Below, in pieces: positions 7,090-39,115 of a stretch of 64,000 nt of DNA (positions are counted from its first letter, which is position 1; every line of letters starts with the position of its first letter). The DNA lies in the sequence record MN850619.1; one strand, given 5' to 3'. The stretch comes from Escherichia phage finno. The position numbers and the translations under genes are program-made. The notes under the pieces were generated by a model. That model was not told the origin of the DNA. It saw only the letters and a list, made by a program, of their open reading frames with translations, and ran no database searches.

Positions 7090-7133
7090 CTTATTACTCT
7101 CTCTTTTTAGTTAATAACTCATTTTGTGAGGCT

Positions 7134-7163
7134 ATTATAAGGGGCTTCAAAGCCCCTTGTCAA
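7134..7163 (-). promoter_or_regulatory. sigma70-type promoter with hairpin in the spacer
   Basis: Minus strand reads TTGACA, 18 nt spacer AGGGGCTTTGAAGCCCCT, TATAAT; about 40 nt upstream of the rIIB-like start. Confidence 0.6.
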
Positions 7164-7168
7164 GCACT

Positions 7169-31228: not shown

Positions 31229-32029
31229 TTAGTGCAGTTGCTCAGCAGACTCTTTTTCAGCCATAGCTGAGAGTTGCTTAACAAAATCATCACCGAAGTT
31301 AATGCGTAGTTTCTCTTCAATGATTGAAGCACCAATGTTCACCAAAACATCATTGATTGCTTGCATACTGACACCGCCAGTCATCTCCTCAATGAACTCA
31401 ATACTCATACCCATCATCTGTGAAAGTTGGATTAGTGCAACGATATTCATCATCGTAGAGATAGCTGGAATCATCAGTGCAACTTTCACCTGAAGTGGTT
31501 CTATATCAGCTACAGAGTCATTTTCAACAGCTTCTTCCAAAGACTCTTTAGTTTGCTGGATAATCTCCTTGATTCGTGGGTTTAGTTCTTCTACGCCCCA
31601 ATCAAGTTTTTCATATCGTGAAAGTTTCTCTTCCATACGCTTCTCAAGAGCAGCCATAACAGCACTTGTTGATGAGATAAGCGTATCAATAATGAAATCA
31701 GTGTCCTTAGTCAGCAACAGTTCCTTATCTTCGTCTGACATCCTGATATAGTCATTCTTTTGCATTTCATAAAAGATGAACTCAGCAAGTGCATCAACAC
31801 CAACCGCAATAGATGCCAGAGCAAGTGTAGTGTCTGTCAACATCATGTTAACCTGTTCTGCAAAAGCACCGTTATCAGACTTGTCTTCAGGCAAGTTATA
31901 GCTTGAAGGCATAAACTGTTCTGTGTAGTTGTTCCCACGAAGAATCATAGCCATACTTTCTACGGCATTGATTAAAAATGCTTCGTCAATACCTTTTTCT
32001 TCAAGCATCTTTTCTACATCGATATTCAT
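31229..32029 (-). CDS. hypothetical acidic protein
   Basis: 266 aa ORF. Confidence 0.6.
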   Translation of the reverse strand: MNIDVEKMLEEKGIDEAFLINAVESMAMILRGNNYTEQFMPSSYNLPEDKSDNGAFAEQVNMMLTDTTLALASIAVGVDALAEFIFYEMQKNDYIRMSDEDKELLLTKDTDFIIDTLISSTSAVMAALEKRMEEKLSRYEKLDWGVEELNPRIKEIIQQTKESLEEAVENDSVADIEPLQVKVALMIPAISTMMNIVALIQLSQMMGMSIEFIEEMTGGVSMQAINDVLVNIGASIIEEKLRINFGDDFVKQLSAMAEKESAEQLH

Positions 32030-32030
32030 A

Positions 32031-32453
32031 TTATTTCTCTCTCAGTTGGTTAAGTTTCTTTCTAGAACATTTTAAGTTTTCTGATGAAGAAAAGTCAAGT
32101 GTCTTTTCAGAACGTGGATAATAGTGCCTATCCCAAGAAGTTTCAACATCGTTAATCAGTGATGCTAGATTACACAGGTCTGTACCACTTTGCAACCTCT
32201 TTTTAAGAGAATCTAGTAAAGCAACTGTGTCTTTAGCTTTACGTCTCGCTGTAGCAACATCTTTCATATGCTCAAACACAGAGCATTTTAAGTCATCTTC
32301 ATAGTTTTCAGATAACTCTATTTCATGTTGTATATCAACCATTCTCCTGTGATGGTGAGCATATTCCCGTTGAGCAGCAATGTCAAGTTCTTCCAACTTC
32401 TGCAAAGCTCTAACAAAGTCAGCTATGTCTGGGTGAACAAACATTTTCTGCAT
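32031..32453 (-). CDS. hypothetical protein (first gene of minus-strand early block)
   Basis: 140 aa ORF adjacent to divergent intergenic region. Confidence 0.6.
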   Translation of the reverse strand: MQKMFVHPDIADFVRALQKLEELDIAAQREYAHHHRRMVDIQHEIELSENYEDDLKCSVFEHMKDVATARRKAKDTVALLDSLKKRLQSGTDLCNLASLINDVETSWDRHYYPRSEKTLDFSSSENLKCSRKKLNQLREK

Positions 32454-32496
32454 GTAAGCCTCTTTTAAGTAACTATTAAGTTTTAATCTTTTATCT

Positions 32497-32515
32497 TAAC
32501 GTATTCTATACGTTA
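32497..32515. promoter_or_regulatory. perfect inverted repeat TAACGTA-TTCTA-TACGTTA (operator-like)
   Basis: Read directly in the divergent intergenic region between the two transcription blocks. Confidence 0.55.
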
Positions 32516-32710
32516 TACTTTAAAGCTTTTTAAAAGCTATTAAATAATCTTTTAAGAGTTTTAAAGTATCTGTATAGTTAAACTGTTAAGTAACCTTTTA
32601 AGTAAAAACCCACTTCGCAAAGATTAACACCTTGTCAAGTGCATTGTCAACTTGCTTTTTATAATTTTTTGCAGTAATGTATGAGGTTAATGATTTTAGA
32701 GGGAGTAAAA

Positions 32711-35410
32711 ATGGAAAACGTAGATTTTAAAAACTTACATTTGGTTGGTGATACAGAAACTGATGGTTTACTCCTTGAGTTCACTAAAGTGCACGTAATG
32801 GCTTTCGCAGACTATAAATCTGACGATGAAGAGCCACCTGTATGGGTCTTTACAGATGAACCTATCCTCGGTCACAAGTATACCAAGTACATTAAGGGTG
32901 GCTTACGTGAAGGTATTGAGTTTGCGTTAAAGGCAAAACGTCTTTGCATCCACAACGGTCTCGGTTATGACTGGTGGGTTTTCAATCACATTGCACCTGA
33001 TTTATGGAACTTTGATAATCCAAAGTGTAAACCGTGGAGTAATTTCTTTCAGGATTCTCTTATCCAGTCTCGTGTTCAGTGGATGGATAGACCAACTCCA
33101 AAGGGTTATAAAGGTGCTCATGGTTTGGCTGCATGGGGTGCTCGTGTTGGTGTTCGTAAACCAGAGATTGAGCATTGGGGTGTGTGGAATGCAGAAATCT
33201 TCACTCGTGTTGTAGAAGATATCCGTATTAACGCCAAAACTAAACGGGCACTTGATAACGAGTATCTCAAGCTTAAGAAGTGTGGTATAGATACTTATGA
33301 AACCTACATGCGAGCTAAAGAAACATCTTTCTGGATGAGTCAACAAGCTATCAATGGCTGGAAAGCTGATAAAGAGCTTATGGAGTTCCATGTAAAGGAA
33401 CTTGACAAGTTGACTAATGAGCTTGCTTCAGAGGTTGAACCACACCTACCTCCAACTATTAAGACCAAAGGTAAAGTCACTGGAGAAGAGTTTGCAAAAG
33501 CTTGGAATGAGTATGTTGAAACATTTGGTCATGCAGATGGACTGAAAAGAATTACCAAGTACCCTAAGACAAAGTATCGTCAGCAGGTACGTAATGGCGA
33601 GATGCAGACATACGAAATCAAACCATTTGGTAAGCCAACTACAAAGATTTTTAACATTGAAAAGAGAAATTGCTATACACCAACCAACTCTGTAACTGGT
33701 GAAGAGTACAAAGAGGGTTTTGTAGCGATGAAGGATGCTCGTGCAATCTGCAACGAGTTGAATGCAAAGATTGGCAAAAAATGCAAAGACTGGAAACCAG
33801 TAAAAACAGTCAAGACTGTGAAGTACTATAACAGCCACGTTGTCAATCACTTTGAACTTGAGTCAAGTCGCTACACAGGTTTGATTGATGCACCATATAC
33901 ACCAATTGAGTTCGAAGTTTCTCGTATGACTCAGGTAGCAGTTGTTAAAGACTACTTGAAATCAGTTGGTTGGATTCCAGATGACTGGAACTACAAGAAA
34001 GACTCAGATGGTCGTCCTGTTAAGGTTTGTCGTTTCAAAGACAATAAAAAGATGATTACAAAGCATCCTAAGTGGCAGGAAATGGTTGAGCGGTGTGGTT
34101 TGAGTTATGTTGAGCATGAAGGTGTACAGTACATTGAGCATAACTGGTCTGTGAAGAAGTACACAGATTTGCTTGAGCCTTGCTTAATCCGTACTTCGCC
34201 AAAACTTACTGAATCATCTTATGATACGATTGAAGGTGAGCTTGGACAGAAGATTGCGAAATACTACACTTTGATGCACCGACGCAGAACTATTGAGAAC
34301 TCAAAGGATGATGAGAAAGGTTGGTTGAACCAGATTCGTCCTGATGGTCGCCTTAGTGCTGGTGCAATGGTGTTTGGTACTTCAACTGGACGTATGACAC
34401 AGTATGGTATTGTAAACGTACCGTCTGGTGCTGCTGTCTATGGGGAACCAATGAGGGCAGTGTGGATTTGTGAGGAAGGTACTAACGTTGTCTCTGTCGA
34501 TATGAACTCAGCCCAGCTAGTTCTGCTTTGTAACTTTATGGGTGATAAAGACTTCACCAAAGCGGTAACGCAAGGTAAAGAAGAGATTGAGTTCATTCGT
34601 CAAGAAGATGGACGCTATTACTGCAAACACTTTGATGAGTACCTCAACCCAGAGATTGATAAGTACCTTCGCTATGACTCTGAGAATGACCTGTACGTTG
34701 TCTATTCAGGGACTGATGCACATACATTGAACAGTATTTACTTTAGCTTGAATGATGAGCAGGATATCTTGACTTGTCGAGCCACTCAGGATGAGAATCT
34801 CCTCCATGAGATTAGTAAGGGTCGTAAGAAAGCTAAGAATGGTATCTATGCACTGCTGTTCGGTGCAGGTGATGAGAAGTTTGCTAAGACGATTAAGGCT
34901 GCAACTACTCAGGAAGGTGCGCTGACTAAACAGACTTACTTTATCCGTTTGCCTAAAATTAAAAAGCTGCTAGATGACTTGGAAGCTGACTACAAAGCAA
35001 CTAAAAAGGCACTTGAAGAGGTGTTTGGTAAGACTGCTGCAATCTCTAAAGGGGGTTTTGTAAAGGTTGCTGGAGCTTGGTTGTGGTGTAAATCTCCACA
35101 TAAGTTATTGAATTATTTGCTCATGGGTTCAGAGGCTCAGATTCAAAATGAGGCAATTAACCTTGCTTGCCGTCGTATGATTGACGAAGGCTTAATGAAG
35201 TTAAATGGGCGTAAACCAGCTATTGGTGCTCGTTTACTCTGCGCATATCATGACGAGACGAGTTGGGAATGTCCAGAAAGTATGACGGCAGAGGTGAAAG
35301 CAGTTACTGACTGGTATTATGGACAAGCTTCTAAGAACTTAGGTCTTAAGAAAGAAACACTTGTTACAGGTACTGGTAAGGTTGGTAAAAGCTGGCTTGA
35401 AGTACACTAA
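32711..35410 (+). CDS. DNA polymerase, family A, with 3'-5' exonuclease domain
   Basis: Exo I DTETDG; motif A VVSVDMNSAQLVLL; motif B-like RKKAKNGIYALLFGAG; motif C AYHDE; start set to ATG at 32711 with GAGGGAG RBS. Confidence 0.9.
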   Translation: MENVDFKNLHLVGDTETDGLLLEFTKVHVMAFADYKSDDEEPPVWVFTDEPILGHKYTKYIKGGLREGIEFALKAKRLCIHNGLGYDWWVFNHIAPDLWNFDNPKCKPWSNFFQDSLIQSRVQWMDRPTPKGYKGAHGLAAWGARVGVRKPEIEHWGVWNAEIFTRVVEDIRINAKTKRALDNEYLKLKKCGIDTYETYMRAKETSFWMSQQAINGWKADKELMEFHVKELDKLTNELASEVEPHLPPTIKTKGKVTGEEFAKAWNEYVETFGHADGLKRITKYPKTKYRQQVRNGEMQTYEIKPFGKPTTKIFNIEKRNCYTPTNSVTGEEYKEGFVAMKDARAICNELNAKIGKKCKDWKPVKTVKTVKYYNSHVVNHFELESSRYTGLIDAPYTPIEFEVSRMTQVAVVKDYLKSVGWIPDDWNYKKDSDGRPVKVCRFKDNKKMITKHPKWQEMVERCGLSYVEHEGVQYIEHNWSVKKYTDLLEPCLIRTSPKLTESSYDTIEGELGQKIAKYYTLMHRRRTIENSKDDEKGWLNQIRPDGRLSAGAMVFGTSTGRMTQYGIVNVPSGAAVYGEPMRAVWICEEGTNVVSVDMNSAQLVLLCNFMGDKDFTKAVTQGKEEIEFIRQEDGRYYCKHFDEYLNPEIDKYLRYDSENDLYVVYSGTDAHTLNSIYFSLNDEQDILTCRATQDENLLHEISKGRKKAKNGIYALLFGAGDEKFAKTIKAATTQEGALTKQTYFIRLPKIKKLLDDLEADYKATKKALEEVFGKTAAISKGGFVKVAGAWLWCKSPHKLLNYLLMGSEAQIQNEAINLACRRMIDEGLMKLNGRKPAIGARLLCAYHDETSWECPESMTAEVKAVTDWYYGQASKNLGLKKETLVTGTGKVGKSWLEVH

Positions 35411-37977: not shown

Positions 37978-38225
37978 GAGCAGCATAAACCAACGGGTAC
38001 TCACCAGCATCACTTAAGAGTCTTCTAAAAGGGTTTTTAAGTCATGTATTGCACGGTAAGGTGATGTGAAGTCTGGTCTGGCATGGTGTAGTCTGGTATG
38101 GAAGGATGGCAGTAGCCTTATAAAAAATCTGCCAAATAAGCTATAAAATCTGTTGACAAGTCAGGTGTTATAGCTTATTTTTATACTCAATGTAATACAA
38201 AATTTAATATAGCTTTGAGGTCATT

Positions 38226-38610: not shown

Positions 38611-38823
38611 ATGGCTCTTAAAAAGTTACATCCCAGAAGCGGTTATGGTAAGATAATTGATGATACAGACGGCTTTACAGTCTTTACAGTCATCTGTCAA
38701 GATGATTCACAGATTGAAAAGGCTCTTGATGATTATCTTAACGATGAACGTGAAAAGGTTAGGGCTACAAACATAGATTCATTGATTGACACTTCACGCA
38801 AACGGAAGAAGAAAGATGAATGA
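38611..38823 (+). CDS. hypothetical protein
   Basis: 70 aa ORF. Confidence 0.5.
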   Translation: MALKKLHPRSGYGKIIDDTDGFTVFTVICQDDSQIEKALDDYLNDEREKVRATNIDSLIDTSRKRKKKDE

Positions 38824-39115
38824 GGTTTTTGACCCTTATGCCCCACAAGATGATTGGGAGGCTGATAGAGAGGCTGAAATGGAGAGTTATATTTGTCCAA
38901 TGGATGTAGACGAGATGAGAGATTTCGTTGCACATCGTTTTAAGAGAGAGATTAAATCCAGAGGTCTTTCTCAAGAGCAAGTTGCTAAAATTTGTGGTAT
39001 CTCTCAAGCTCGTGTATCCAACATAATCCACCTCACTGGGAATGTCTCTCTTGAGTATATGTTGGGAGTCTGTGAAAAATTTGGTGTTAATTTTAATTTA
39101 AGGTTGGCAGATTAA
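38816..39115 (+). CDS. helix-turn-helix DNA-binding protein
   Basis: EQVAKICGISQARVSNII resembles an HTH recognition helix; start set to ATG at 38816. Confidence 0.5.
   Translation: MNEVFDPYAPQDDWEADREAEMESYICPMDVDEMRDFVAHRFKREIKSRGLSQEQVAKICGISQARVSNIIHLTGNVSLEYMLGVCEKFGVNFNLRLAD

Follow-up and report, generated by a model that had tools for sequence, protein, structure and literature searches.

Lytic coliphages such as T4 and T5 possess divergent early promoter regions of the host sigma-70 type. Operators of the lambda type are 17-bp dyads with a 7-3-7 arrangement, and they are bound by HTH dimers of Cro/CI. With respect to replication, the primary origin of T7 consists of the phi1.1A/B promoters followed by an AT-rich stretch, and oriF and oriG of T4 combine a promoter with an unwinding element. 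Origins of the iteron type, represented by lambda ori and the origins of the plasmids P1 and F, are built from units of 18-22 bp. Felix O1 is a classical phage for the typing and biocontrol of Salmonella.

In the genome paper of Felix O1, early transcription was assumed to start from divergent promoters in the gap between genes 96 and 97, and an obvious sigma-70 match was not found in that gap (Whichard et al. 2010, PMC3185647). According to RT-PCR in the same study, transcripts of ORF96 (pol), ORF101, and ORF105, covering polymerase, primase/helicase, and exonuclease, were present by 5 min (PMC3185647). No start-site mapping, RNA-seq, or binding data for Ounavirinae were found in the literature searched, and in the text consulted the Bas63 knockout screen reports nothing on the control-region gap. 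The existence of such a region is already assumed in the literature; the details given below, and a possible link to a replication origin and to the terminal repeats, are new. The region is real and strongly constrained, and it is an ordinary kind of phage regulatory region with a selected dyad. The reading favored here, to which we give about an even chance of being correct, is that it is the divergent early-promoter/control region of the replication module of Felix O1-type phages, with the palindrome as a regulator site.

The window analyzed in this paper, a 64-kb stretch of DNA, belongs to a Felixounavirus (Ounavirinae), and 1.2 kb around the region are 98-99% identical to more than 200 Felix O1-like phages. 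The control region is flanked by the start codon of a leftward 140-aa gene (32453) and by the conserved ATG of the DNA polymerase gene (32711). In the annotation of the near-identical phage ASO1A, the leftward block encodes the 140-aa hypothetical protein, a 266-aa "minor tail protein", dNMP kinase, primase/helicase, and exonuclease, while the rightward block begins with a family-A DNA polymerase followed by ligase. Since replication genes are located on both sides, the region can be regarded as a divergent gap within the replication module. The initial annotation, made from the letters of the window, had described a divergent control region between a leftward early block and a polymerase block, and this description is borne out by the replication genes on the leftward side and by the early transcripts seen in RT-PCR (PMC3185647). 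The features discussed in this paper are as follows.

32454..32710, unstranded: whole intergenic control region (ORF map and annotation of the near-identical phage ASO1A)
32451..32464, minus strand: start codon of the 140-aa gene (32453-32451) and its Shine-Dalgarno sequence AAGAGG (32464-32459) (sequence)
32462..32480, plus strand: repeat pair A, CTTTTAAG (32462) and CTATTAAG (32473), 11 bp apart (repeat search)
32497..32515, unstranded: palindrome 1, TAACGTAT-TCT-ATACGTTA (8+3+8) (inverted-repeat search; conservation)
32518..32538, unstranded: repeat pair B with palindrome 2, CTTTAAAG (32518) and AGCTTTT-T-AAAAGCT (32524-32538) (repeat search)
32549..32565, plus strand: repeat pair C, CTTTTAAG (32549) and the degenerate GTTTTAAAG (32557) (repeat search)
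32583..32602, plus strand: repeat pair D, CTGTTAAGTAAC (32583) and CTTTTAAGTAAA (32595), 12 bp apart (repeat search)
32621..32626, minus strand: candidate -10 of the leftward promoter P_L, TAATCT (TAGTCT in Mooglevirus) (comparison across clades)
32633..32638, minus strand: second TTGACA hexamer, without a matching -10, equal to the first TTGTCAA copy (sequence)
32645..32650, minus strand: -35 hexamer of P_L, TTGACA, equal to the second TTGTCAA copy (perfect in 13/13 Ounavirinae representatives)
32651..32672, minus strand: A/T tract upstream of the P_L -35, GCAAAAAATTATAAAAAGCAAG (alignments)
32652..32657, plus strand: candidate -35 of the rightward promoter P_R, TTGCTT (invariant in Felixounavirus, Suspvirus, and Mooglevirus sequences and in the intermediate relative L055)
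32660..32665, plus strand: TATAAT box, in Felixounavirus only (inside the P_R spacer and the P_L upstream tract)
32675..32680, plus strand: candidate -10 of P_R, TAATGT (TAnnnT pattern and spacing of 17 kept)
32699..32713, plus strand: Shine-Dalgarno sequence GAGGGAG and conserved ATG (32711) of the DNA polymerase (sequence, alignments)
38816..39115, plus strand: Cro/CI-type HTH protein, putative binder of palindrome 1 (Pfam HTH_3 3e-9; phrog_1373)

At 26% G+C, the region ranks second by size among the ORF-free gaps of the window. The largest non-coding gap (1368-1849, 482 nt, also ORF-free) contains several GAAAAATCATTTTCAAAACGTGCAG-like repeats and a poly-A run and ends in a TTGAC promoter-like site. 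With regard to the gene starts, AGAGG-N5/6-ATG is conserved in the alignments at the start of the 140-aa gene. The polymerase has been annotated from in-frame ATG 32681 or 32690 depending on the record, and these are less likely starts. ATG 32711, behind GAGGGAG, is the only one conserved across genera, and by this comparison it is most probably the true start; the true length of the polymerase is probably 899 aa. The 266-aa gene (31229-32029, minus strand) belongs to the early replication operon, where it is flanked by the 140-aa gene and the dNMP kinase gene. Many records, and PHROG 4251, label it "minor tail protein", apparently a misannotation that has been propagated; its product has no Pfam match, and the gene is absent from Yersinia phage P778.

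The region was aligned among Felix O1, Suspvirus (phiSUSP1), the pEC-M719 clade, and Mooglevirus (Sf13, Sf14, Mordin, and Moogle), together with IMG/VR and metagenome contigs. Across three genera (the window against Suspvirus and Mooglevirus) the whole region is 81-85% identical. Third codon positions of the flanking genes are only 54-65% identical between the same genera, and the 140-aa protein shows 61-75% identity. Judged by the difference between the region and the third codon positions, the full 200 bp are under purifying selection, which acts on more than one motif. The best-conserved segments are 32520-32549 (30 nt, 95% mean identity) and the promoter core at 32621-32657 (89-97%), and the lowest conservation is found at 32658-32690, the TATAAT box included.

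The right end of the region is read as P_L and P_R because the hexamers are conserved while the spacer varies. P_L, on the minus strand, consists of TTGACA (32650 to 32645), a spacer of 18 nt, and TAATCT (32626 to 32621); ASO1A carries an annotation that overlaps this promoter, with GTTAAT as -10 and a spacer of 16 nt. Thirteen Ounavirinae representatives were compared, including Kolesnikvirus, Yersinia phage P778, Pectobacterium phage Arno162, and four divergent metagenome contigs. All 13 have a perfect leftward-strand TTGACA 176-205 nt upstream of the 140-aa gene start, and in all 13 it is followed, after 17 or 18 nt, by TAnnnT, with TAATGT, TACATT, TAGGCT, and TATCGT among the -10 variants. 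On the opposite strand, TTGCTT-N17-TA[A/G]nnT is kept in every alignable relative, and the sequence of its 17-nt spacer varies freely; the -10 of P_R reads TAAGGT, TAGGGT, TAGTGT, or TAATTT in relatives. P_L agrees with the consensus at 9 of 12 positions and P_R (TTGCTT, N17, TAATGT) at 6 of 12, each -10 hexamer being weak with 3 of 6 matches. A scan for the sigma-70 consensus with a threshold of 4/6 in each hexamer reported neither promoter. Upstream of the P_L -35, AAAAAGCAAG is conserved within the A/T tract, and we presume that this tract (32651-32672) resembles an UP element.

It can be seen that several elements singled out earlier take on a different role in this comparison. The tandem TTGTCAA-N5-TTGTCAA is present at 32632 and 32644; it is best read not as a regulator site but as two minus-strand TTGACA -35 hexamers. 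The TATAAT box is likewise present at 32660-32665, but it is not conserved: it is replaced by GAAAC, GTGTC, or GAAGA in relatives and falls within the variable spacer of the better-conserved P_R candidate. The functional promoters are most likely the back-to-back pair at 32621-32680 rather than this box. A promoter needing a phage factor had also been considered in the initial annotation, but conserved elements of the host sigma-70 type are present and nothing calls for such a factor. Two further promoter candidates were rejected. One, a second leftward promoter built on the TAGAAT of the palindrome loop, has no usable -35 or TGn extension, and its hexamer is lost in Mooglevirus; the other, a rightward promoter, TTATCT-N17-TATACT, across the palindrome, has an unconserved -10 (TATAAC or TAATAC in relatives).

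This locus shares with the early regions of lytic coliphages a perfect TTGACA at -35, an upstream tract rich in A/T, and replication genes that are expressed early; as at the T4 and T5 early promoters, unmodified host polymerase would be used immediately after infection. Unlike the T4 and T5 regions, the -35 hexamers of the two promoters stand back-to-back with only 1 bp between them, the -10 hexamer of each is weak, and the leftward leader of about 165 nt is conserved and laden with repeats. Other intergenic promoters in the genome show the same combination of a perfect TTGACA and a variable -10 as P_L. An intergenic unit, AGTACTTTACAAGGGGCTTA...TAAGCCCCAGATAAAGAGCTTTAC, which is the 57-bp direct repeat of Whichard 2010, is repeated at 1-310, 605-690, 1075-1160, and 7090-7168 of the window. 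It contains a G+C-rich hairpin placed between a -35-like TTTACA and downstream sequence, and at 7090-7168 the hairpin GGGGCTTTGAAGCCCC exactly separates a perfect TTGACA from TATAAT.

Palindrome 1 had been reported as a perfect inverted repeat, TAACGTA-TTCTA-TACGTTA, at 32497-32515. It is present there, and each arm is one base longer than was described. By itself the repeat is not significant: a comparable one, perfect over arms of 8 or more and with a loop no longer than 6, arises in 14% of dinucleotide shuffles of the 257 nt, and the whole 64 kb hold 3 of this kind. Since shuffles often give such a repeat, the reality of palindrome 1 rests on its conservation, which was sampled in 13 distinct sequences (47 loci) from three genera. 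The forms recovered include the following.

Felixounavirus (32/32 sampled): TAACGTAT-TCT-ATACGTTA
pEC-M719 clade: TTACGTAT-TCT-ATACGTAA
Suspvirus and some Mooglevirus: TACGTAT-TCT-ATACGTA
Other Mooglevirus: TATGTAT-GTT-ATACATA

Altogether five variants exist across the three genera, each perfect over 7 pairs, and the core TAYGTAT-N3-ATACRTA (7-3-7) is kept in all three. The inner 7 pairs are unbroken in all 13 sequences, and 2 of the 8 pairs show a double compensatory change, C-G to T-A and A-T to T-A. The change of C/G to T/A loses the self-symmetry of ACGT and retains the inverted symmetry, indicating that the dyad is what is selected. Conservation in related phages, which had been proposed as a check on the palindrome, is thus found in related genera and is accompanied by compensatory changes. 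Palindrome 1 is absent from the representatives examined of Kolesnikvirus, P778, and Arno162 and from L055, an intermediate relative in which the promoters and repeats are kept.

The half-site centers of palindrome 1 are 10 bp apart and the changes are symmetric in both half-sites, as in an operator dyad, and like the lambda operators it has 7-3-7 geometry. Its center at 32506 is about 115 bp from the -10 of P_L and about 146 bp from the -35 of P_R, so that it lies about 110 bp downstream of the presumed start of P_L and 44 nt upstream of the 140-aa start codon. No conserved promoter overlapping or adjoining palindrome 1 was seen in the alignments. A search for the motif elsewhere, which the initial annotation had suggested, allowed up to 4 mismatches and covered both the window and the remainder of the Felix O1 genome. 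It gave no credible second site, and a regulon-wide operator was therefore rejected. A single copy without promoter overlap is unusual for an operator. Because palindrome 1 lies in the presumed leader, off the promoters and in a single copy, its anatomy does not show a classical promoter-occluding operator. It also differs from the lambda operators in being single, in lying off the promoter, and in the perfect symmetry that it has in every lineage; the phage, too, is strictly lytic. The preferred reading of palindrome 1 is a putative single binding site for a dimeric phage regulator.

As in lambda, a Cro/CI-family HTH protein (38816-39115) is encoded in the same genome, and its phyletic range equals that of palindrome 1. 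Searches with tblastn gave matches in 260 phage records, all from the three genera carrying palindrome 1, and two further weak matches in Zymomonas records. No tblastn match was obtained in Erwinia, Pectobacterium, or Yersinia relatives, and the representatives examined of these clades also have no palindrome 1. This co-occurrence supports the HTH protein as a candidate binder, but in phylogenetic terms it represents one event. The TACGTAT and TATGTAT lineages share the recognition helix SQ[A/S]RVSNI, and since the helix is invariant while the half-site changes, no co-variation of protein and DNA is seen. Just upstream of the operon containing the HTH gene, positions 38134-38180 hold an inverted repeat, AAATAAGCTATAAAATCTG / CAGGTGTTATAGCTTATTT, with 19-nt arms that are 89% complementary and a perfect TTGACA in the 9-nt loop. 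By its sequence, this repeat is a stronger operator-like or hairpin-promoter candidate than palindrome 1.

The stretch from P_L to the 140-aa gene carries CTNTWAAG-type units in four phased pairs, with starts at 32462/32473, 32518/32526, 32549/32557, and 32583/32595. The repeated motifs pointed out in the initial annotation are confirmed: CTTTTAAG occurs at 32462, 32549, and 32595, which are 3 of its 10 plus-strand copies in 64 kb, and TTAAGT has four copies in the region. Six CTNTWAAG units are present in 197 nt, compared with 0.27 expected, and none of 5000 shuffles reached six. No other 200-nt stretch of the 64-kb window has four or more. In distant clades that cannot be aligned, several units of this kind (CTGTTAAG, CTGTAAAG, and CTTTAAAG) are found between promoter and gene, often 10-13 bp apart.

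The neighboring 140-aa gene (32031-32453, minus strand) is present in all Ounavirinae, and its product has invariant HRRMVDVQHEIELSE and RRKxKDT motifs. The AlphaFold model of the protein (pLDDT 72) is a long helical hairpin plus two helices, for which no PDB match below E = 0.1 was found. The protein has no Pfam family, and its PHROG family has unknown function. Among 1.8 billion representatives 28 remote relatives were recovered, and ten of these, when checked, had no significant Pfam domain. As a binder or initiator, this protein was considered and set aside, there being no informative fold or family match.

In a Felix O1-type genome, CTNTWAAG units cluster in only one other place, a 1.6-kb stretch that is free of ORFs and lies just outside the window, between convergent gene blocks. 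This stretch goes unmentioned in the Felix O1 genome paper (PMC3185647). It contains dozens of CTGTTAAG, CTTGTTAG, and TGTTAAGA units at a spacing of about 10-11 bp. The corresponding features in three phages are listed below.

Felix O1, AF320576 12300-13930 (L060:2810-4430): the 1.6-kb repeat stretch, with both unit orientations
Pr103Blw, MW481326 1-581 and 87841-88421 (L095, L096): annotated 581-bp direct terminal repeat, inside the counterpart of the 1.6-kb stretch
vEam_S_24, PP079187 1-850 (L063): similar array, as at Kolesnikvirus genome starts

The terminal repeat of Pr103Blw was determined with PhageTerm (PMC8303462); annotated at both ends of the record, it holds about 20 units. In the control region, the first copy of pair D (CTGTTAAGTAAC, 32583) is of the terminal-repeat type, and AACTGTTAAGTAAC (32581) agrees at 13 of 14 bases with a unit located beside the Pr103Blw terminal repeat. 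Within the control region, a weight matrix built from strict terminal-repeat units recovers one copy only, the same AACTGTTAAGTAAC at 32581. That a shared protein may bind the units of the control region and those of the terminal repeats is a lead, not a result.

In the mechanism proposed here, host RNA polymerase with sigma-70 would initiate at the back-to-back P_L and P_R, at start points that are presumed. P_R would fire rightward, with about 25 nt of leader ahead of the DNA polymerase gene. P_L would fire leftward, through a leader of about 165 nt with 78% A+T, ahead of the 140-aa, dNMP kinase, and primase/helicase genes. The leftward leader would serve as a conserved cis-acting platform, on which 8-12-bp units are arranged in four phased pairs, together with two palindromes that are small and perfect. 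The Cro/CI-type HTH protein is the obvious candidate regulator at palindrome 1, and it could act on the leftward operon from within the leader, by roadblock or looping, without occluding the promoter. We infer protein binding in this scheme, and likewise the direction and mechanism of regulation.

The region might also, or mainly, be a lytic replication origin, which is compatible with the promoter reading and which we consider possible but rather unlikely. Transcription from P_L would enter the most easily unwound DNA, an initiator would bind the iteron-like repeats, and an R-loop or the opened duplex would load the T7-like primase-helicase and the family-A polymerase. By nearest-neighbor energies, no 150-bp duplex in the 64 kb is less stable than 32460-32609 (-161 kcal/mol, where the mean is -192 kcal/mol; a difference of about 4.8 sd), and the minima at the 100-bp and 200-bp scales also fall in the region, as would be expected of the unwinding element of a phage origin. 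The excess of phased units and the two palindromes favor the same idea, as do the constraint over the whole 200 bp, beyond the promoter hexamers, and the fact that every Ounavirinae clade, including the unalignable ones, retains the distance from promoter to gene and an A+T stretch rich in repeats. The location between the primase/helicase and DNA polymerase genes of a T7-like replisome is also suitable, and in the literature searched no origin has been described for the Felix O1-type group. As in T7 and T4, a promoter would fire into the most A+T-rich, least stable DNA beside the replication genes, and the polymerase and primase-helicase resemble those of T7; unlike those origins, the promoter here is of the host sigma-70 type and is associated with phased short repeats and palindromes. 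The clustered phased repeats beside an A+T-rich stretch, with dyads nearby, recall the iteron origins, but the units of 8-12 bp are shorter than classical iterons, related units occur in the terminal repeats, and no Rep- or O-like initiator can be recognized, the adjacent 140-aa protein included. GC skew was discarded as an origin marker, its switch being uninformative because it tracks gene orientation. The more specific proposal that the region is a lytic origin with a transcription-activated unwinding element, that its repeats belong to the terminal-repeat family, and that one phage protein links both sites is unlikely in our estimation.

Alternatively, the palindromes could work as hairpins in RNA, within the long 5' leader of the leftward transcript, which they would stabilize or whose translation or processing they would tune; the repeats would then be protein sites at the RNA level. 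Both lie downstream of the conserved P_L, their complementarity is perfect in every lineage, and RNAalifold predicts a local hairpin for each, two pairs of hairpin 1 being covariant. The always-perfect complementarity of palindrome 1 fits base-pairing slightly better than it fits protein half-sites. In palindrome 2, a T-to-C change found in SUSP1 and again in AYO145A would give a G-U pair in minus-strand RNA and a C-A mismatch on the plus strand. Covariation, however, does not discriminate between RNA and DNA, because a DNA palindrome yields the same signal. The hairpins are weak, that of palindrome 1 being marginal at -3.5 to -5.8 kcal/mol, folds of the whole leader are no better than those of shuffles on either strand (z = -1.6 and -1.2), no Rfam match at E <= 1 was obtained for 32000-33000 on both strands, and the Shine-Dalgarno sequence, 33 nt away, is untouched by the hairpin. 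Moreover, related units occur in the ORF-free terminal-repeat region between convergent blocks, which points to recognition at the DNA level, and function as RNA is regarded as improbable. A further view would attribute the motifs to the A+T-rich composition and to the close relatedness of the sequences, leaving only the promoter hexamers as functional. The proportion of shuffles that hold a perfect inverted repeat with 8-bp arms agrees with this, and most of the available sequences are from Felixounaviruses about 98% identical to one another. Chance alone, however, is very hard to reconcile with full-length conservation exceeding that of synonymous-type sites where the 140-aa protein is only 61-75% identical, with two compensatory changes in palindrome 1, or with a repeat count unmatched in 5000 shuffles, and such an explanation is already disfavored.

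For the divergent early-promoter/control region favored here, the present analysis supplies concrete conserved candidates, namely two back-to-back promoters, a dyad matched in range by an HTH protein, and a repeat-laden stretch prone to unwinding. About 200 bp of seemingly empty intergenic DNA are constrained, and the region is therefore unsuitable as an insertion site in phage engineering. If the link between the control region and the terminal repeats is true, one phage DNA-binding protein would connect early transcription and replication at this locus with events at the genome ends.
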